Shown here piece after piece: positions 1,205-56,146 of a DNA stretch of 64,000 bases. The position numbers and the translations under genes are program-made. Origin of the DNA: an uncultured Candidatus Saccharibacteria bacterium. GTDB taxonomy: Bacteria > Patescibacteriota > Minisyncoccia > Phycocordibacterales > PALSA-1337. Every line of letters begins with the position of its first letter. Position 1 is the stretch's first letter. Location of the stretch: assembly GCA_964645315.1 (NCBI GenBank), contig CAZYBH010000003.1, positions 5,789 through 69,788 of the forward strand, written 5' to 3'. The notes under the pieces were generated by a model, which was given only the letters and a program-made list of their open reading frames with translations, did not search any database and was not told the origin of the DNA.

Positions 1205-4200
1205 TTATGAAATAACAATATTGATCAATCTATTGGGTACAACGATAACTTTTGTAACCTTTTTGCCTTCCAACCACTTCTTGACAACCTCATTTTCCAT
1301 AGCGATTTTTTCGATAATAGATTTGTCTGCATTTGAAGGTGCTTCGAAACTTCCTCTCAACTTACCATTGATCTGAATTGTAATATTTACGATATCTTCT
1401 TGGACAAAATCTGGGTTATATTCTGGCCAAGGAGCGATATGAATTGACTTTTTATTTCCCAAATTCATCCACAATTCTTCAGTAAAATGAGGGGCAAAAG
1501 GAGCCAAAAGTTTGATCAAATTAGAAAAATTTTGTTTATCGATAATTCCGATTTTTTCTACTTCATTTACTGTAATCATAAGGGTACTGATTGCTGTATT
1601 GAATCGTAGTGATTTGATATCATCAGTCACCTTCTTGATTGCTTTGTGAATGTATTTTGATATTTCTTTTGTTTGATTTTGATCTAAGGTATTTGAAATT
1701 TTGTCATTCAATTTCCAGACTCTTTCTATGAATCTCCTTGTACCACTCAAGCCAGCAGTACTCCAAGCAATCTGTTGATCAAATGGACCCATAAACATTT
1801 CGTATAATCTCATCGAATCAGCACCATAGTTTTTGACTATATCATCAGGATTTACTACGTTGCCAAATCTCTTGGACATCTTCCTACCATCTTCACCCAT
1901 AATAAGACCGACGTGCTGAAGTTTGATAAATGGTTCGGTCGTCGAAACTACTCCGATGTCATACAAGAATTTGTGCCAGAAGCGGGCGTATATGAGATGG
2001 CGCGTTGCATGTTCTGCCCCACCAACATAGACATCGACTGGTGACCAATATTTTTCTTTTTTATTATCAACCAATGCTTTGGAATTTTTTGGATCCATGT
2101 AGCGCAAATAGTACCAAGATGAACCTGCCCACTGTGGCATAGTATTTGTCTCTCTCTTGGCTTTGCCTTTGCAAACTGGACACTTAACATTGACCCATTT
2201 GTCTATCGAAGCAAGAGGCGACTCACCAGTACCAGTAGGTTCGTAAGATTTGACTCGAGGTAATGTCACTGGCAAATCTTTGAAAGGTACGGGTACAATT
2301 CCGTTTGATTCTGGTCTTATCAATTTGCAATTTTCGCAATGAATAATTGGCATTGGCTCGCCCCAATATCGTTGACGCGAAAATACCCAATCACGAAGTT
2401 TGTATTTTGTAACCCACTTGCCACCAACAAAATCTGTAATTTCTTTTTTTATTTCTTCAGAATTTTTGCCGTTGAATTGACCTGAATCCATAACAATACC
2501 ATAACCGGTATATGCTATATCACCATTTAATCTCTGACGCCAATAAGGCATCTCCGAATGCGTCATAAAATCATCTGTAAGTGTTGAGAAAGATTCCCAA
2601 AATATTTCATGTTGGGCATTTTCTTCATCACTAACATTATCTTTTTCTTCATTTTCCAAATCAAAGGTAACCAACGATGTTAAAGCCAATCTATTTTGAT
2701 CTTTATGAGCTGCAAAATATTCTGCTCTGACTATACCGCCCAAAACTTTGCCATTTGAAAGATTTTTGTAGCCAGTCTCCTCTTGTACTTCTCTTTTGGC
2801 TGCTGTTATCAGATCTTCACCTTGTTCGACTCCTCCCATTGGGAAAGTTGTCCAAGGATGCTTTTTCCATTTCAAACAAAGAATCTTTCCATCTTTTGGA
2901 TTTCTTACAATGACATGAACATTTCTTCTTTCTACTTTTTGCTTACCAGCCACTGGAGGATTTCTTTTATCGACGATGTGTGGAGCGATGACTTGCTTTA
3001 TTGAAAGATTGTATTTTGTTGCAAACTCCCAATCTCTATCATCATGAGCGGGTACGGCCATGACTGCGCCTGTGCCATAATCTGGCAAGACATAATCAGC
3101 AATCCAAAGTGGCACAGCTTCATTGTTTGCTGGATTAATAACCTTGATACCTTTCAATTCAACACCCGTCTTTTCTTTTTTTACATCTGTCCTTTCAATT
3201 TCGCTAATATTTTTTACTTTCTTTATATATTCTTCAACTTCGTTTCTATTTTCTACAATACTCAAAAATTCAGAGACTAGTTTGTGCTCTGGAGCAAGGA
3301 CAACATAAGTAACCCCAAATAATGTATCCGGCCTTGTCGTAAATACTTCTATTTCTTTTTCACCTTTTACCTTTTCCCTATTACCTCCTTGCCCTCCGTA
3401 GCCTTGGCGAAGGAGGGTTACCTTAAATGTAATCAACGCTCCCTCACTCTTCCCAATCCAATTTTTCTGCAAAATCTTTATCGATTCTGGCCAATCAAGC
3501 AAATTACCGCCCTTTTCATTTTTCAAATCAAGATCAGATAAAAGTCTCTCGGCATAGTCAGTAATTTTCAAAACCCATTGACGCATAGGTTTCTTTTCGA
3601 CAACAGTACCACAACGCTCACAACGACCATCCTCAACATCTTCATTTGCCAAACCAGTCTTGCATGAAGGACACCAATTTATCGGCTCATATGATTCATA
3701 AGCCAAACCTTTTTCTAATAATTTCAAAAAGATCCACTGTGTCCATTTGTAATATTTTGGATCGGTGGTGTTGACCTCGCGCGACCAATCATAATCGAAG
3801 CCAAGTATTTCCAATTGCTTCTTGTATCTTGCAACATTCTTCTTGACCGAATCGGCCGGATTGGTCTTGGTCTTTAGTGCATAATTTTCTGCTGGTAGAC
3901 CGAAAGCGTCAAAGCCCATAGGATGTAGAACCGAGTGACCATTCATGCGCTTGAAACGAGAAATGACATCGGTGGCAATATAGCCTTTTGGATGACCAAC
4001 ATGCAAACCTTCACCGGATGGATATGGGAACATATCGAGAACATAAAATTTCTCTCTTTTACCAACTTCTTTTGATTGGTACAATTTGGTCTTTTGCCAT
4101 TTCTTCTGCCATTTGGATTCGATGGGGGCGGGGTTATAGGTTTTGAGCGTTATCTTTTTTGTACTTACTGATGCGCTTTTTCTTGGCTTTTGCCCTTTGC

Positions 4201-4240
4201 CTTTTACCTTTTTTAATGCCTTAGATTTTACTTTTTTCAT
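1205..4240 (-). CDS. leuS: leucyl-tRNA synthetase with Lys-rich N-terminal extension and an inserted Nudix hydrolase domain
   Basis: Class I aaRS motifs: PYPSGEGLHVGH (HIGH) and KMSKRFGNV (KMSKS). CP1 editing-domain signature GTGAVMAVPAHDDRDWEFA. Start chosen at MKKVKSK (4240) rather than the track's 4309. Nudix box GGVEQGEDLITAAKREVQEETGY inside a ~155-aa insertion at nt 2513..2980. Confidence 0.9.
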   Translation of the reverse strand: MKKVKSKALKKVKGKGQKPRKSASVSTKKITLKTYNPAPIESKWQKKWQKTKLYQSKEVGKREKFYVLDMFPYPSGEGLHVGHPKGYIATDVISRFKRMNGHSVLHPMGFDAFGLPAENYALKTKTNPADSVKKNVARYKKQLEILGFDYDWSREVNTTDPKYYKWTQWIFLKLLEKGLAYESYEPINWCPSCKTGLANEDVEDGRCERCGTVVEKKPMRQWVLKITDYAERLLSDLDLKNEKGGNLLDWPESIKILQKNWIGKSEGALITFKVTLLRQGYGGQGGNREKVKGEKEIEVFTTRPDTLFGVTYVVLAPEHKLVSEFLSIVENRNEVEEYIKKVKNISEIERTDVKKEKTGVELKGIKVINPANNEAVPLWIADYVLPDYGTGAVMAVPAHDDRDWEFATKYNLSIKQVIAPHIVDKRNPPVAGKQKVERRNVHVIVRNPKDGKILCLKWKKHPWTTFPMGGVEQGEDLITAAKREVQEETGYKNLSNGKVLGGIVRAEYFAAHKDQNRLALTSLVTFDLENEEKDNVSDEENAQHEIFWESFSTLTDDFMTHSEMPYWRQRLNGDIAYTGYGIVMDSGQFNGKNSEEIKKEITDFVGGKWVTKYKLRDWVFSRQRYWGEPMPIIHCENCKLIRPESNGIVPVPFKDLPVTLPRVKSYEPTGTGESPLASIDKWVNVKCPVCKGKAKRETNTMPQWAGSSWYYLRYMDPKNSKALVDNKKEKYWSPVDVYVGGAEHATRHLIYARFWHKFLYDIGVVSTTEPFIKLQHVGLIMGEDGRKMSKRFGNVVNPDDIVKNYGADSMRLYEMFMGPFDQQIAWSTAGLSGTRRFIERVWKLNDKISNTLDQNQTKEISKYIHKAIKKVTDDIKSLRFNTAISTLMITVNEVEKIGIIDKQNFSNLIKLLAPFAPHFTEELWMNLGNKKSIHIAPWPEYNPDFVQEDIVNITIQINGKLRGSFEAPSNADKSIIEKIAMENEVVKKWLEGKKVTKVIVVPNRLINIVIS

Positions 4241-4298
4241 AGAGCAATCATAGCGGAAAGTGGGTTTTGACGCAAAATTGTGCTGATTTAAAAGGGTA

Positions 4299-4327
4299 TT
4301 GACAATCATTATGTGGTATGCTATAAT
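4299..4327 (+). promoter_or_regulatory. consensus sigma70-type promoter (TTGACA-17 bp-TATAAT)
   Basis: ttgaca at 4299..4304, 17-bp spacer, tataat at 4322..4327. Faces away from leuS. Confidence 0.55.
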
Positions 4328-4333
4328 TGAAGT

Positions 4334-4563
4334 AGATGAATACCACCCAAATAACGACGTTCACGGGAACGCCCGAAGTCGCGGCCAGGAAGGCCGAGGA
4401 GTTGTTTGATGTCCAGAAGCTGGACATCAAACAGACTCTAGTCAATACGTCCACTACGTTGGTGGACGGGAAACTCATTCTGACCATCGTTGTAATCTGG
4501 ACCCGTCCGGTCTAGTAACAACGAACGCATCGCGTTCCCTCCGGGGGGCGCGATGATTTTTTT
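4334..4563 (+). ncRNA. candidate small structured RNA (family unassigned) or leaderless mRNA for a 59-aa ORF (4336..4515)
   Basis: Begins about 7 nt after the -10 box and ends in an intrinsic terminator. About 55% GC inside a roughly 35% GC genome. Contains a perfect 14-bp hairpin at 4403..4433 (tgtttgatgtccag-aag-ctggacatcaaaca) and further hairpins (cgttcacgggaacg, ggcc-aggaa-ggcc, gacggg...cccgtc). ORF 4336..4515 reads MNTTQITTFTGTPEVAARKAEELFDVQKLDIKQTLVNTSTTLVDGKLILTIVVIWTRPV, just under the track's size cutoff. Confidence 0.4.
4528..4563 (+). terminator. rho-independent terminator (catcgcg...cgcgatg stem followed by T7)
   Basis: GC-rich hairpin followed by a ttttttt run. Confidence 0.65.
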
Positions 4564-4580
4564 ACAAACATTTTATGGAA

Positions 4581-5165
4581 TCAGACAAACCACTTTTTCC
4601 TATGCTTATCTAAATAGGTCATAATATCTTCGAGAAAATATTGAGCAAAACTATTGTATTTGCTTGTCTTACTTCTTTTTCGATTATTAAAATCTTCAAA
4701 ACTAACTTTTCTCTTGAGCCAATGATCATCTTCAGATAGTAGTACAGTAAGAATAGGCTCAATTTTTTCTATTATATATACAAATATAGCCTCTTCATCT
4801 TGCCTCTTTTCGTAAATATCAATTTCTTTCCAAATATTAATTAAATCTGGATATCTACTTTTTAACTTTGCCAGAGATTTCAATTCTCTTTTATGTTTAT
4901 CAATCTTCTTATTTGAATATATGGAAACATCACCAGCATAAACTTCTACAAAGTCATGGATGAGTGAATACTTTATAACTTTATTTAAATCAAGTTTTAA
5001 ATTATATTTTTCAATAATCATCCAACAAAGCATAGCAACCCTATATGAATGTTCTGCATCATTGTCTCTAATCATAGAACTATGGATCGAATCGAGGTCT
5101 CTATATGTAGAATTAAAGCGCTTCAATAATTTCTGATAGGCGATAATATTTTTGAAATATTCCAT
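4581..5165 (-). CDS. HD-domain phosphohydrolase (YfbR-like 5'-deoxynucleotidase family)
   Basis: H...HSYRVA and LIHDFVEVYAGD, the HD motif. Confidence 0.7.
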   Translation of the reverse strand: MEYFKNIIAYQKLLKRFNSTYRDLDSIHSSMIRDNDAEHSYRVAMLCWMIIEKYNLKLDLNKVIKYSLIHDFVEVYAGDVSIYSNKKIDKHKRELKSLAKLKSRYPDLINIWKEIDIYEKRQDEEAIFVYIIEKIEPILTVLLSEDDHWLKRKVSFEDFNNRKRSKTSKYNSFAQYFLEDIMTYLDKHRKKWFV

Positions 5166-5214
5166 ATGGGCAGTGTACTATATTTCATAAAGAAATAAAG
5201 TTATACCTTAAACT

Positions 5215-7839: not shown

Positions 7840-9275
7840 ACCACCTCACTTGCACCTTTATCGTAAAGATTGAGTGGAATTTTATCCAAATTTTGAAGAA
7901 TAGGTGTTATATATTCCCAAGAAGCCATAATTTCGCCAGTCGATGCAAAAAGAGTCTGATCACCTATGAAGGCATCGTGAATCAATCTCTCATAATCATT
8001 CTTCAACAAATTGAAATTTGGTACATCTGAATACTTGAACTTCAATGTCTTGGCCTCAGTATCAAAACCGTATCCAGGCGTTTTTACAAAAAACTTGATT
8101 TTTATACCTTCATCAGGTTGTACTCGAAAAGTCAAAATGTTTTGTTCCAAAATATCTTCATTTTTTGTTACTTTCTTTTTGCCTTTTATTTTATTTTTGA
8201 AATATATATCGATCTCAGTCTTTGTCTCACTCAAAGCCTTCCCATTTTCGAGGTAAAATGTCACTCCTTTCCATCTAGAATTTTCAACCTCTGCTTTGAG
8301 CAAAAAATATGACTCAGTTTTCGATTCTGGATTGACCTTTTCATCAAGATAACCTTTGTACTGTCCGCGTACTAGATTTTGGACAACTTGTCTTGAATTT
8401 AGCTTCTTGAGACTAGACAATACCTTTTGCCTTTCCCTACGGATATCTGTAGCCTGCATTTTCTTGGGTGTATCCATAGCGACAAGAGCGAGCATTTGGA
8501 GCATGTGATTTTGTCCTACATCTTTCAATGCACCGATCGGATCATAGAATGCGCCACGGCCTTCAAGACCGATCTTTTCGTAAAGTTTGATATGGACTTT
8601 GTCGATATGATCACTATTCCACAATGATTCGAAGATCGGATTTGTAAAGCGAAATGTCAAAATATTTTGCAAAGCTTCTTTTGCAAGATAGTGGTCGATA
8701 CGGAAAATCTGCTCTTCTTTGAATAATTTACCCAATAACTTATCCAAAGATTTTGCCGTTTCTATATCATTTCCAAATGGCTTCTCTATGAGAACGCGAG
8801 TCCAGCCACTTAGATCATCACAAGGTACAGTCAGACCTGAATTGGCCAATTCTTTCAAAATACCTTCATAAAGATTTGGTGGTACAGAAAGATGGAAAAG
8901 TTTGTTGGAACATTGACCCCAAGCATCATCGGTTTTCTTGAGTCGATCAGCCAGCCTCGAATATGCAATCGGAGAATCGAAATATCCCTGTTCGTATGAA
9001 ATATGATCAAGAAAATGTTTTACATCTTCTTCATTAAATTGACCAGGGAGAATATTGAGTCGGCTTCGAATTAATTCTCTAAATTCTTCTCTAGTAAATT
9101 GTCTTCTTGAAAATCCGACAATAGAAAATCTCGGAGGCAGAAGCTTCTTTACATAAAGTGACAATAGAGCTGGCAAAAGTTTGCGATGAGCGAGATCGCC
9201 GGTAATGCCGAAAATTACAAATATTGTCGGATGCAGAGCAAGAGGTGCTATTGGCTGATTTAGCTTGATTTCCAT
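7836..9275 (-). CDS. zwf: glucose-6-phosphate 1-dehydrogenase
   Basis: NAD(P)-binding N-terminus GITGDLAHRKL, EKPFG, and the RIDHYLAKE active-site motif. Confidence 0.9.
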   Translation of the reverse strand: MEIKLNQPIAPLALHPTIFVIFGITGDLAHRKLLPALLSLYVKKLLPPRFSIVGFSRRQFTREEFRELIRSRLNILPGQFNEEDVKHFLDHISYEQGYFDSPIAYSRLADRLKKTDDAWGQCSNKLFHLSVPPNLYEGILKELANSGLTVPCDDLSGWTRVLIEKPFGNDIETAKSLDKLLGKLFKEEQIFRIDHYLAKEALQNILTFRFTNPIFESLWNSDHIDKVHIKLYEKIGLEGRGAFYDPIGALKDVGQNHMLQMLALVAMDTPKKMQATDIRRERQKVLSSLKKLNSRQVVQNLVRGQYKGYLDEKVNPESKTESYFLLKAEVENSRWKGVTFYLENGKALSETKTEIDIYFKNKIKGKKKVTKNEDILEQNILTFRVQPDEGIKIKFFVKTPGYGFDTEAKTLKFKYSDVPNFNLLKNDYERLIHDAFIGDQTLFASTGEIMASWEYITPILQNLDKIPLNLYDKGASEVV

Positions 9276-37619: not shown

Positions 37620-37668
37620 TAAATAAATATGTTACATTTTCTCATGTTAGTTCATTAAAAGAAAATAT

Positions 37669-37994
37669 TCCGGAGTAGCTCAGCGGTAGAGCAGTCGCCT
37701 GTGGAGTTCGCAGCTTCCACAAGAAATTGTGGATGACAAACGAGGTGAATTCGGGGAAACCCCAAATGTAAATAAGGGCAATCCCGAGCCAATCCCATCT
37801 TTGTGATGGGCAGGTGTAGAGACTATCCTTTCCAGGAGTAGTGCGAAGTGAAATATCTTCAAACGAAGCGCCTCGTCCCTAAATTATCAAGTTGGAAACT
37901 CGATAACATGGGAATGATATAGTCCGTCCCTATTAGTAATAGTAGGATAAGCGTAAGCGATTGGTCACAGGTTCGAATCCTGTCTCCGGAGCCC
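37669..37994 (+). tRNA. tRNA-Asn (GUU) interrupted by a group I intron; exons 37669..37702 and 37954..37994
   Basis: Exons splice to UCCGGAGUAGCUCAGCGGUAGAGCAGUCGCCUGU|UAAGCGAUUGGUCACAGGUUCGAAUCCUGUCUCCGGAGCC. U1-A72, G73 and anticodon loop CUGUUAA match bacterial tRNA-Asn (compare B. subtilis tRNA-Asn). Anticodon stem is GUCGC/GCGAU. Confidence 0.8.
37703..37953 (+). ncRNA. group I intron (~251 nt) in the tRNA-Asn anticodon loop, between anticodon positions 35 and 36
   Basis: Conserved core elements: P-like AAUUCGGGGAAA, Q-like AAUCCCGAGCC, R-like GGUGUAGAGACUAUCC, S-like AUGAUAUAGUCC (P7 GACUA/UAGUC). P9 hairpin with GUAA tetraloop. The 5' exon ends in U, which pairs with G37710 in a short P1. 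The intron ends in G (37953). Confidence 0.7.
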
Positions 37995-39614
37995 TAGTGA
38001 CGAAACCTCACATTTTGTGGGGTTTTGTCTTTTATTGCTTGATATTTTAGAGGTTCGAGCGCGCTCTAATTCTTCTTCGACCGCCTGACGACTTTTGATG
38101 ATCGTTTTAATGAAAGAATGGTAATTTACAAAGACCTTTTTGCCTTTTAGGGTGAGGTTCGAGCCAAGGCATGCGAGTATCGCTCTTTTGGCTTTATCAT
38201 CTCCTTTTTCAAACCAAATGTGGGCGTAGCAAGCGAAGTCAAAGGTCTGCTCGGTGAGTTCCACCCACTCCAATACCTCTCTGTTTTTCGTCTTCAATTC
38301 TTCTTCGAGTGCCAGTTTCTTTTTTACTATTCCAACCTTGAGCGTTTGGTATTCTTCATCAGTAATTATCGCTCGCTCACTGTTTGCTGGCGAGGTGAAG
38401 TTGAGTGTCAGTGACTGCAAATTCTTGGTGACTTCCTCAAGCTCTTTGTGCTTGCCTTTGAGGACCACAGAATCGCTGTCAACTTCTGTTTTTCGCAGTT
38501 CATGGAGGTGCTTGATTGCCCAGTCTTTGAATCTTTCCGAAATGGTGATCTCACTGAGCTTTTGTTTTATATCAAGTTCCAAGTTCTTAAGCTCTATCAC
38601 TTTCTCCGGACACTTCACGTCTACTTTTTTCTTGGTGCAATTGTAGTAAACGTAGTGGTGAACATTGCCGTTCTTACATCGCTTTACTTTCGCCTGTGCA
38701 GTGATACTACAGCCACACGTGCCGCATTTCATAAGCGAGGTGAAGGCAAAGCTGCGCTCTGGCCGAGGTCGTGGTTGCATGGTTCTTCCCATGATCTGTT
38801 GGACCTTATTGAATTCTTCTTCGGTTATCATGGCTTCATGTGCGCCTTTGTGCCATTCTCCGCTTTTGTAGGGATATTCAAACCAGCCGTAATAAAAGGG
38901 GTTGCTTAGGAGTGCATAGATGCCGCTTTTAGAAAGATGCTTGCCACCCATATTTCTTCGTTGATACGTTTTCAAATTCAACTCCTTACGAGCCACATCC
39001 CATATTTGAATTGTGCTGTAGTTACCGGTAAGCATGAGGTCAAAGAGTCTCTTTACCACAGGAAAACGTTCAGGGTCCTTCATGATGGTCTTGAATCCTT
39101 TTTCTCGGTCTGGTGTGCTCATATATCCCACAGGACACATGCTTGGTAGCCAGCCTTCTCGGACCTTCTTTGCAAGACCTCGCTTTACGTTTACTGATAA
39201 GTCTCTGATGTACTGGTTGGCCATGCCAAGCTCAACTTGCATCATGAGGACATTGTCCGTTGGGTAGTATGTTCGGCCGAATGTCACAATCTGTGCGATT
39301 GCACTTTGCTGTAGCATCCAGCTTATTTGTCCACCGTCCACAGGGTTGCGTGCAAGGCGGTCCAGTTTCCAACAGATGATTCCATTCGCTTCGCCTTTGT
39401 AAATTCTCTCAAGCATTTTGTTGAATACTGGTCTTCCTGGTTTCTTGGCCGATTGTGATTCGGTAAGGACCTCAACTATCGCCAAGCCTTGCTCTTCTGC
39501 AATCTTCAAGAGTTCATCTTTCTGAGCATCGATTGATGCCGCTTGTCTGTCTTCCGCCTCGCTTGATTTACGAGCGTAGAGGAAGTATTTGATTGTAGGT
39601 GTTTTATTATTCAT
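37965..39614 (-). CDS. large serine recombinase (resolvase/invertase-type catalytic domain + recombinase domain + zinc-ribbon)
   Basis: IKYFLYARKSSEAEDRQ...SIDAQ (catalytic Ser) and LDRLARN motifs. C-terminal Cys-rich region. The 3' end overlaps the last ~30 nt of the tRNA-Asn gene. Start taken at MNNKTPTIKY (39614). Confidence 0.85.
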   Translation of the reverse strand: MNNKTPTIKYFLYARKSSEAEDRQAASIDAQKDELLKIAEEQGLAIVEVLTESQSAKKPGRPVFNKMLERIYKGEANGIICWKLDRLARNPVDGGQISWMLQQSAIAQIVTFGRTYYPTDNVLMMQVELGMANQYIRDLSVNVKRGLAKKVREGWLPSMCPVGYMSTPDREKGFKTIMKDPERFPVVKRLFDLMLTGNYSTIQIWDVARKELNLKTYQRRNMGGKHLSKSGIYALLSNPFYYGWFEYPYKSGEWHKGAHEAMITEEEFNKVQQIMGRTMQPRPRPERSFAFTSLMKCGTCGCSITAQAKVKRCKNGNVHHYVYYNCTKKKVDVKCPEKVIELKNLELDIKQKLSEITISERFKDWAIKHLHELRKTEVDSDSVVLKGKHKELEEVTKNLQSLTLNFTSPANSERAIITDEEYQTLKVGIVKKKLALEEELKTKNREVLEWVELTEQTFDFACYAHIWFEKGDDKAKRAILACLGSNLTLKGKKVFVNYHSFIKTIIKSRQAVEEELERARTSKISSNKRQNPTKCEVSSLGLRRQDSNL

Positions 39615-40452
39615 ATGCGCTTTTAATGTTATCTTCCGACCGTTTTTCACCGTTTTTAAATGGTGGTTTTTGCTCTATGGCAGTTACATTATCGTCACTG
39701 CGTGGTTCCCGTAATTTTCCCGTTATTTCGGGAAAGGTCGTCTCACCGGGCTGACGAACGACAGTATCCCCAGAAGGGTCTCGAATAGCAACTGATTCCT
39801 GACTTCTTGGCATCTGCCATTTCTGCATTGTTCCCCTTAACACATCTCCAATGTGAGTTACAGAATTAGGAGAGTTTTTTCTTAGGTTAGTTAGAGTTTC
39901 ATTATCATCACTGCGATATGGTCGCTTATTGTAACTGCGAGGGCGTTGTTTTTGTAACTGCGGTGGTGCCTCGGATATCTTTATTTTTCGATTCCAGTTA
40001 GGGACCGGCAACCATAGCTCGCTCGCATGGAAAGTGTAGAGATTTACCATGTTGAACATACCATCAGCTCTCGTAACGCCGATAATGCCGTAGCCTTCGA
40101 GGATGCGAATTGCCTTAATGATGCTACTTCTGTTTTTACTGCCGACGAGTTCCTGAATGGTAGTGATACTTGGAAACGCCGCCTGGCTTTCGGTGTTGCA
40201 GTGGACCAAAAGCGCCATATATACTGACGTACATAACTTTGAGAGTGTTGCAAGATATCCGCCTTGCACATATTCGTTATCAACGAAGAACCTGCTCGAC
40301 TTATTCTTTTTGCGAAGTTTGGACCGATCTATCTTGTCATGCAGTCTGTTGAGGTAGGCTTTCTTTTGATTGTGGTTGAGGTCCTTTCTTGTTTTTGATT
40401 TGTCTCTTAGTATCCACTCGATCAATTCCTTGTCGTTTTCCATATTCTTCAA
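39607..40452 (-). CDS. hypothetical protein with central HTH-like segment (possible replication/regulatory protein)
   Basis: FPSITTIQELVGSKNRSSIIKAIRILEGYGII resembles a winged-helix/HTH. The N-terminal region overlaps the 40337..40600 ORF in another frame. Confidence 0.45.
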   Translation of the reverse strand: MKNMENDKELIEWILRDKSKTRKDLNHNQKKAYLNRLHDKIDRSKLRKKNKSSRFFVDNEYVQGGYLATLSKLCTSVYMALLVHCNTESQAAFPSITTIQELVGSKNRSSIIKAIRILEGYGIIGVTRADGMFNMVNLYTFHASELWLPVPNWNRKIKISEAPPQLQKQRPRSYNKRPYRSDDNETLTNLRKNSPNSVTHIGDVLRGTMQKWQMPRSQESVAIRDPSGDTVVRQPGETTFPEITGKLREPRSDDNVTAIEQKPPFKNGEKRSEDNIKSAYE

Positions 40453-55576: not shown

Positions 55577-56146
55577 ATGCCCATATATGTCCCAAAACAA
55601 ATAGTAGAAATAAAACCAAGTAAGAAAGCACCTCTTTTTTTCCTAGCGGGACCGATCCGTGGCGGAGGTGATTGGCAAACAAAGATGGCGAGAATAATCT
55701 TGGATAAAGTTCCAGATGCAAACATCGCCTGCCCTGCTCGATGGGATGCCGATCATCCACTTGCACAATATTTCTACAAACCTTTTTCTCAAGCAGACAA
55801 TCGTCAATTGGTCTGGGAAAGACACTATCTCAAACAAGCAGGAATTGAACCAAATGTACCAGGCTGTATCATTTTTTGGCTGGGTCAAGAAAGTAAGACG
55901 AATCCTCATCCAGGTCCAGAATCATATGCCATGGACACTCGTCGAGAGATCGGTAAGTTCACCGCCTTTGCCGAAATGATGAAAACAAGAATGGTTGTCG
56001 GTGGTGATCGAACTTTCCATGGTCTCGATGTAATTCTTTTCGAATTAAGCGAAGCGTACAAAAAACCTTTTCCTTTCTATGAGACTATGGATGAAACGGT
56101 AGACGCTGCAATAAAACTTGTAAATGAGAACCCTTCTAATGACTAG
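55577..56146 (+). CDS. nucleoside 2-deoxyribosyltransferase-like (NDT/SLOG superfamily) protein
   Basis: LFFLAGPIRGG resembles the YLAGP motif of the NDT family. A TATAAT (55565..55570) lies 6 nt before the ATG, giving a leaderless-like arrangement. Confidence 0.45.
   Translation: MPIYVPKQIVEIKPSKKAPLFFLAGPIRGGGDWQTKMARIILDKVPDANIACPARWDADHPLAQYFYKPFSQADNRQLVWERHYLKQAGIEPNVPGCIIFWLGQESKTNPHPGPESYAMDTRREIGKFTAFAEMMKTRMVVGGDRTFHGLDVILFELSEAYKKPFPFYETMDETVDAAIKLVNENPSND

Follow-up and report, generated by a model that had tools for sequence, protein, structure and literature searches.

A probable stand-alone gene for a lineage-restricted 59-residue protein with a structured, leaderless or near-leaderless mRNA beside leuS in a Patescibacterium

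Leaderless genes have been described in Actinobacteria (e.g., in the leaderless transcriptome of Mycobacterium tuberculosis), in Deinococcus, and in archaea. Their hallmarks, a −10 element directly before the AUG and the lack of a Shine-Dalgarno sequence, recurring genome-wide, have a counterpart in the 64,000-nucleotide stretch of DNA from an uncultured Candidatus Saccharibacteria bacterium that we analyzed (hereafter, the window), while our search of the literature on Patescibacteria found no description of leaderless initiation. One short unit in the window, next to leuS, invites comparison with three further systems. It resembles dual-function sRNAs (SgrS/SgrT, RNAIII/hld delta-haemolysin, SR1/SR1P) as a strongly folded, autonomous unit of about 230 nt with a small ORF; it resembles type I toxin-antitoxin loci, in which a small ORF also lies on a stable, highly folded mRNA driven by a strong promoter of its own; and the model of its predicted product recalls dodecins (PF07311), which are flavin- or calcium-binding dodecameric proteins of 65–70 aa.

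A sequence-only reading of this unit had preferred a structured sRNA as its product, leaving as alternatives a leaderless 59-aa ORF and, for a palindrome within it, a protein-binding site. Each sequence feature described in that reading was found at or close to where it had been placed. Our comparison with homologous loci now makes it very probable that the unit stands alone as a gene for a cytoplasmic protein of 59 residues, which is confined to one lineage and expressed from a leaderless or near-leaderless, structured mRNA.

The protein has few relatives. A search space of about 5.8 billion protein clusters and 1.84 billion representatives yielded three distinct family members: the window protein (P0001), whose ORF protein searches also recovered unchanged from several assemblies of the same population, and two diverged homologues only, P0002 (60 aa, 76% identity to the window protein, on locus L086) and P0005 (63 aa, 45–48% identity, E = 2e-5 in an exhaustive search of representatives, on locus L089). 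The small ORF of an additional locus, L087, is 100% identical to that of the window. Both diverged genes adjoin the start of leuS within near-identical flanks, and the conserved flank sequence of the locus is GCGGAAAGTGGGTTTTGACGCAAAAT. The NCBI annotation of the MAG missed the ORF, which was not called by its gene caller. Neither DNA searches (nhmmer, blastn) nor a protein-profile search found the element at 80 leuS loci from GTDB species representatives, and it was likewise absent from four further relatives (L090–L093) whose LeuS N-terminal region is 70–86% identical. Scans of JGI metagenomes with back-translated peptide patterns and the exact conserved flank gave no match, nor did an IMG/VR scan or tblastn against phage and plasmid collections. 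A likeness to Listeria-Bacteroides (Flg_new) repeat proteins (P0003, P0004, P0006) was rejected as a repeat-inflated, 23-residue match with an hhalign probability of 5%. The window LeuS has its closest relatives among uncultured Saccharibacteria, Paceibacterota, and Patescibacteria MAGs, and across these collections the small protein is apparently restricted to one narrow Patescibacteria (CPR) lineage.

Transcription of the unit would start from a sigma-70-type consensus promoter on the + strand (TTGACA-17-TGnTATAAT, 4299–4327), in which the −35 hexamer TTGACA (4299–4304) and the −10 hexamer TATAAT (4322–4327) score 12/12. The perfect TTGACA-17-TATAAT match had already been recognized; to it we add an extended −10 TG (4319–4320). 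This is the sole 12/12 match on either strand of the window, for which we estimate from base frequencies a chance expectation of roughly 0.1. L086 and L089 retain the two hexamers at a distance of 17 nt (the −10 of L086 being TATGAT), and the central 9 nt of the spacer have an identity of only 3/9 to 6/8 across loci. The geometry and a conserved AGATG place the probable transcription start 6–8 nt past the −10 box (4334–4336, +), such that transcription would begin 0–2 nt before the AUG. The CDS (4336–4515, +; start ATG at 4336, stop TAG at 4513–4515) encodes a 59-aa protein, MNTTQITTFTGTPEVAARKAEELFDVQKLDIKQTLVNTSTTLVDGKLILTIVVIWTRPV, and both the ATG 8 nt after the −10 box and the translation of the 59-codon frame are exactly as first noted.

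Downstream of the CDS lies an intrinsic terminator (4528–4563, +) with a 12-bp G+C-rich stem (4528–4555, 8 G-C pairs), a 4-nt loop, and a T7 tract (4557–4563). The strong terminator anticipated in the sequence-only reading is therefore present, though the stop codon precedes its stem by 12 nt, not 10. It is kept in L086 and L089, where the only changes are G-U or G-C wobbles. Since the convergent downstream gene has a separate terminator of its own in L086, L087, and L089, the terminator at 4528–4563 can be assigned to the small gene. The next gene in the window (4581–5165, an HD-domain gene) is convergent, on the − strand, so the small-gene unit lacks a downstream same-strand gene, as had been claimed, and is a predicted autonomous, monocistronic transcription unit.

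Upstream, the small gene shares with leuS an intergenic part (4241–4298) that holds the likely leuS promoter and an A/T-rich stretch preceding the small-gene −35. The 70 intergenic nucleotides between leuS and the small gene are identical at 69–70 of 70 positions in L086 and L089 despite a leuS dS of 0.45 between the window and L086, and the two back-to-back promoters consequently appear to be under strong constraint.

The neighborhood of the unit has further features of its own. The window LeuS (1208–4240, −) has a Lys-rich N-terminal extension and a NUDIX hydrolase domain (PF00293, residues 439–555, about 2576–2926) inserted after the editing domain; the insertion also occurs in relatives L001, L081, and L091. 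An in-frame TAA in L091 (1410–1412), a related JGI metagenome contig, splits leuS into two called genes and could be a sequencing error or mark a pseudogene. In L090 (GCA_028865675.1, a related MAG), 1.9 kb between ychF and leuS (1900–3776, 40–59% GC) contains no called gene; its longest ORF is 119 aa, none is convincing, and it has no Rfam match. On the other side, the sequence downstream of the small-gene terminator has undergone strain-level replacement (window 4564–5210; L086 835–921; L087 340–525; L089 340–830): the window and L081–L084 have a very AT-rich (28% GC) HD-domain (YfbR-like) gene after the small gene, in place of which L086, L087, and L089 have a gene, with a separate terminator, for a membrane protein of about 98 aa.

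The pattern of change among the homologous loci argues for translation of the proposed frame, in statistics that draw on three distinct sequences, two of them close, and thus on few independent comparisons. The ORFs of the window and L086 differ at 34 sites (7/7/20 by codon position), and dN/dS between them is 0.24 in the ORF frame and 1.2–2.1 in four of the five other frames; the antisense frame that shares wobble positions has a dN/dS of 0.31 but contains stop codons in both sequences. The L089 ORF differs by four indels (+12, −3, +6, −3 nt), each of them in frame. The proposed frame is open in all three loci (59, 60, and 63 codons), with the position of its stop codon kept to within one codon, and it alone stays open; the other frames, the antisense ORF included, gain stops in the homologues. 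Since dS between the window and L086 is similar for the small ORF (0.57) and the adjacent leuS (0.45, with a leuS dN/dS of 0.07), the region is not hypermutated, and the small ORF appears to evolve at the neutral rate of its surroundings, with purifying selection of moderate strength. Relative to L089, its synonymous divergence is saturated (dS about 1.8). Synonymous differences between the window and L086 are nearly absent from the last third of the CDS (about 45 nt), which hints at an additional constraint at the nucleotide level.

Two other candidate frames were rejected: an antisense 79-aa ORF (4248–4487), which has stop codons in L086, and an out-of-frame ATG at 4409 following GAGGAG, which opens a frame of 10 codons and is missing in L086. 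The open frame, the third-position variation, and the exclusively in-frame indels bear out the 59-aa ORF that had earlier been kept as the alternative, and, from these comparisons together with the structural predictions below, we are highly confident that 4336–4515 is a protein-coding gene. Tryptic peptides predicted from its product are AEELFDVQK, QTLVNTSTTLVDGK, and LILTIVVIWTR.

How this message would be translated is suggested by the spacing of its start. The 8 nt from TATAAT to ATG and the motif AGATG are common to all three loci, leaving no room for a Shine-Dalgarno sequence between the −10 box and the AUG; by geometry, the AUG would be preceded by AG or less, a leader of 0–2 nt. A −10-like hexamer (TAnnAT or TATAGT) likewise lies 6 nt before the ATG (7 nt at 9275) at no fewer than 12 other genes in the window, with starts at 4240, 9275, 16404, 18168, 18566, 24124, 29119, 35375, 51937, 55577, 57548, and 63574. 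These include leuS, in which a −35 TTGCGT (4275–4270), a 17-nt spacer, a −10 TATGAT (4252–4247), and 6 nt lead to the ATG (4240–4238, −), such that leuS itself looks leaderless. They also include the two genes for which this geometry had previously been pointed out, def (35375; TATAGT-6 nt-ATG) and the gene at 55577 (TATAAT-6 nt-ATG), and in both it is real.

Because at least 12 window genes have a −10 box 6–7 nt before the ATG, leaderless initiation appears to be usual in this Patescibacterium, with many other genes of the genome, the divergent leuS included, seemingly using the same mode. We consider it likely that the small gene is expressed in a leaderless or near-leaderless manner, in which case translation would initiate on its message with no need for a Shine-Dalgarno sequence. 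Since its spacing is 8 nt, compared to 6 nt at the other putative leaderless genes, a leader of 1–2 nt is likely and strict leaderlessness is only putative. The implied leader sets the gene apart from the leaderless genes described in Actinobacteria, Deinococcus, and archaea, as does its Patescibacterial host.

The predicted product of the gene is a compact beta-alpha-beta-beta two-layer sandwich. AlphaFold2 models of the window protein (2-sequence alignment; pLDDT 89.5, pTM 0.72) and of its homologue in L089 (single sequence; pLDDT 89.6, pTM 0.70), whose sequences are about 45% identical, have the same beta-alpha-beta-beta (E-H-E-E) topology. Searches of Pfam, NCBIfam, PHROG, PADLOC, and PDB sequences gave no credible match for the protein, and all Foldseek matches were weak (E >= 0.015) and inconsistent: a dodecin ranked first for the window protein and Alba for the L089 homologue. 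For the latter model, Alba (Sso10b2) and archease were on top, with dodecins ranked 18th or lower, and in BFVD the top matches were small uncharacterised phage proteins.

The resemblance to dodecins comprises a similar size, the same order of secondary structure elements in the window protein model, and a top Foldseek PDB match to the calcium dodecin Rv0379 (3onr_J; probability 0.99, TM 0.64/0.58, E = 0.047). Set against this, none of the three proteins (P0001, P0002, P0005) has a Pfam match to dodecin at E <= 1, a PDB profile search returned no dodecin at E <= 10, and the window protein is about 10 residues shorter. Its sole Trp (W55) lies in the last strand, presumably off the dodecin flavin position, as judged by eye. 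We found nothing relevant in the literature on dodecins in CPR. With all structural E-values above 0.01, membership in the dodecins is not supported, and the predicted fold is a generic small alpha/beta sandwich.

The small protein is charge-neutral (read from sequence), which argues against nucleic-acid binding. Hydrophobic residues occupy both faces of the predicted C-terminal strand, and Thr, Val, and Ile abound on one face of the sheet, for which reason the protein may self-associate into a dimer or higher oligomer. On this model the small protein could, in oligomeric form, have a non-enzymatic role in binding or as a scaffold, which we propose with considerable doubt. As a predicted soluble alpha/beta domain, it differs from type I toxins, which would be a single transmembrane helix, and the locus differs from type I systems in that it showed neither a convincing antisense promoter or RNA nor a PADLOC match.

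The message itself is unusual in composition. The GC content of the ORF is 52% (45–57% in 100-nt windows), compared to 38.5% for the whole window and 28% for the downstream HD-domain gene; the contrast of about 55% to about 35% first reported was essentially right, if slightly generous. GC3 is 0.67–0.72 in all three homologues, whereas the 54 larger ORFs of the window have a mean of 0.36 (sd 0.09, max 0.55). The idea that high GC3 marks high expression was unsupported, the other high-GC3 ORFs of the window encoding a recombinase, a phosphoribosyltransferase, an ABC ATPase, MsrB, MreB, and RRF.

The transcript also folds strongly. Its + strand reaches −105.3 kcal/mol, and against dinucleotide shuffles it has a z-score of −8.1 (− strand, −5.1), with corresponding + strand values of −6.2 in L086 and −4.5 in L089. 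When the CDS was compared to synonymous-codon permutations of itself, z was −3.7 in the window, −4.8 in L086, and −1.9 to −2.0 in L089. Control segments from other window genes (n = 60) had a mean z of −0.23 (sd 1.0, minimum −2.6); the window and L086 thus lie beyond 60 of 60 controls, and L089 lies inside the control range. The earlier claim of an unusually structured RNA stands in that the CDS folds beyond both its synonymous permutations and the controls, but not in the form of an sRNA. Excess RNA structure and persistently high GC3 are not accounted for by coding alone, and some selection or mutational process (e.g., quasi-palindrome correction) would seem to favor a compact, G+C-rich message.

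Individual helices differ among the lineages. The perfect 14-bp hairpin within the CDS (4403–4433, +; codons 23–33, FDVQ-K-LDIK), noted from the outset, is indeed present, with 4403–4416 pairing perfectly with 4420–4433 across a 3-nt loop. In L086, two synonymous T-to-C changes produce uncompensated C:A mismatches in this stem, within a synonymous run that spans codons 20–25, and in L089 the stem is missing. The hairpin is thus apparently lineage-specific and not a conserved element, and the same observations count against the suggestion that the palindrome is a protein-binding site. Only three helices are shared by all three loci: a short GGCC stem-loop (alignment columns 62–76), a hairpin around the stop codon, and the terminator. 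The stop-codon hairpin is two-tiered (4489–4522, +; outer GTTGT/ACAAC, inner CTGGACC/GGTCTAG), and its pairs (alignment columns 175–208) are kept in 3/3 loci, except that L089 lacks the outermost pair of both tiers. Because the underlying sequence is nearly invariant, this hairpin offers no covariation that would show selection on structure.

Across the three sequences, the covariation term of RNAalifold was +3.9 kcal/mol, a net penalty that gives no covariation support. Rfam returned nothing for the unit at the gathering threshold, and the best permissive match (E = 0.35) was a eukaryotic snoRNA on the wrong strand; the homologous loci had no Rfam match either. The failure to place the RNA in a known family, reported previously, was thus upheld, permissive matches being only noise (E >= 0.35). 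Elsewhere in the window, a group I intron match (Rfam RF00028, 73 bits; 37623–37946, +) adjoins a large serine recombinase gene (37965–39650, −) and does not fall within any tRNA detectable by ARAGORN.

We propose that the body of the mRNA, G+C-rich at synonymous sites and heavily paired, and ending in the stop-codon hairpin followed by the terminator, would be protected against RNases, with the structure supporting a stable, abundant message and not an independent RNA function. Because the actual helices differ between lineages, they seem to fit a generic role in stability better than a specific RNA machine. That the structure serves stability is a plausible possibility, which we advance tentatively.

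The same features could also belong to a dual-function RNA that encodes the small protein and has a further role at the RNA level, whether regulatory, structural, or in binding. Such a transcript might be expected to fold far better than shuffled sequences, as this one does in all three loci, to be over-structured within its CDS, as in the window and L086, to maintain, in an AT-rich genome, a GC3 of about 0.7 although synonymous divergence has reached saturation, and to keep some segments near-invariant at the nucleotide level, as with the 3′ third of the CDS and the stop-codon hairpin. We nevertheless regard a second function as improbable: the ORF takes up about 80% of the transcript length and leaves no separate non-coding module, L089 shares only the three helices named above (with no net covariation support) and has a CDS structure excess within the range of the controls, and no target or partner is evident. 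The described dual-function sRNAs differ on these same points, since here the ORF is nearly the whole transcript, a conserved non-coding base-pairing module is missing, and the internal helices are unconserved.

A broader proposal gives the locus a part beyond that of a small orphan gene, either through an RNA-level role besides coding or as an allelic cassette framed by a promoter arm and a terminator arm that do not vary. The flanks of L086 and L089 are 95–100% identical, whereas identity between their ORFs, at saturated dS, ranges from 56% in a codon alignment to 74% in a nucleotide alignment; this mismatch hints at an exchange of alleles between the promoter and terminator arms, though the flanks are short. 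The strain-level replacement directly downstream is a second hint in favor of the cassette. In the cassette version, diverged alleles would be exchanged, or kept by balancing selection, among close strains, as at recognition or competition loci. We judge the proposal, in either version, unlikely.

Far less probable is a non-coding structured sRNA whose G+C-rich sequence merely happens to leave a 59-codon frame open, the reading preferred at the outset and by now largely refuted. Strong folding z-scores and a G+C-rich island in an AT-rich genome are typical of structural RNAs, runs of 60 codons without a stop are by our estimate not rare at about 52% GC, and a 79-aa antisense ORF exists as well. 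A by-product frame would not readily account for the third-position bias over a conserved protein, for the low dN/dS (the only comparable value belonging to the stop-interrupted antisense frame), for four indels that all preserve the frame, or for a frame that stays open in three of three loci as the others acquire stops. Its two divergent translations are confidently predicted to share one topology, its main hairpin is broken by synonymous changes with no compensation, and Rfam holds no match. Weighing covariation against codon pattern on the homologous loci, as the sequence-only reading had proposed, favors codon conservation.

Recently acquired foreign DNA or a mobile-element remnant, whether spurious or a phage- or plasmid-derived gene, is scarcely credible: a GC3 about 4 sd above that of the window's genes, the absence of the gene from relatives with a similar LeuS N-terminal region, and the strain polymorphism directly downstream would suit it, but the gene holds the same position and flanks in three lineages with ORFs at saturated dS, and so is old within the clade, it retains its high GC3 under purifying selection, it has no match in phage, plasmid, or IMG/VR collections or in PHROGs, and no repeats, integrase, or tRNA adjoin it.

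The stand-alone coding gene that we favor is a modest find, which does not overturn current understanding: it adds one small protein family without recognisable relatives and not a new RNA class. It suggests that small genes in Patescibacteria can mimic sRNAs, being G+C-rich, strongly folded, and bounded by their own promoter and terminator, and yet be coding. The maintained high GC3 and excess mRNA structure raise a small question about selection at the mRNA level. Sequence-level evidence further suggests that this organism commonly initiates translation without a leader, a point that would matter for the prediction of gene starts in such genomes.
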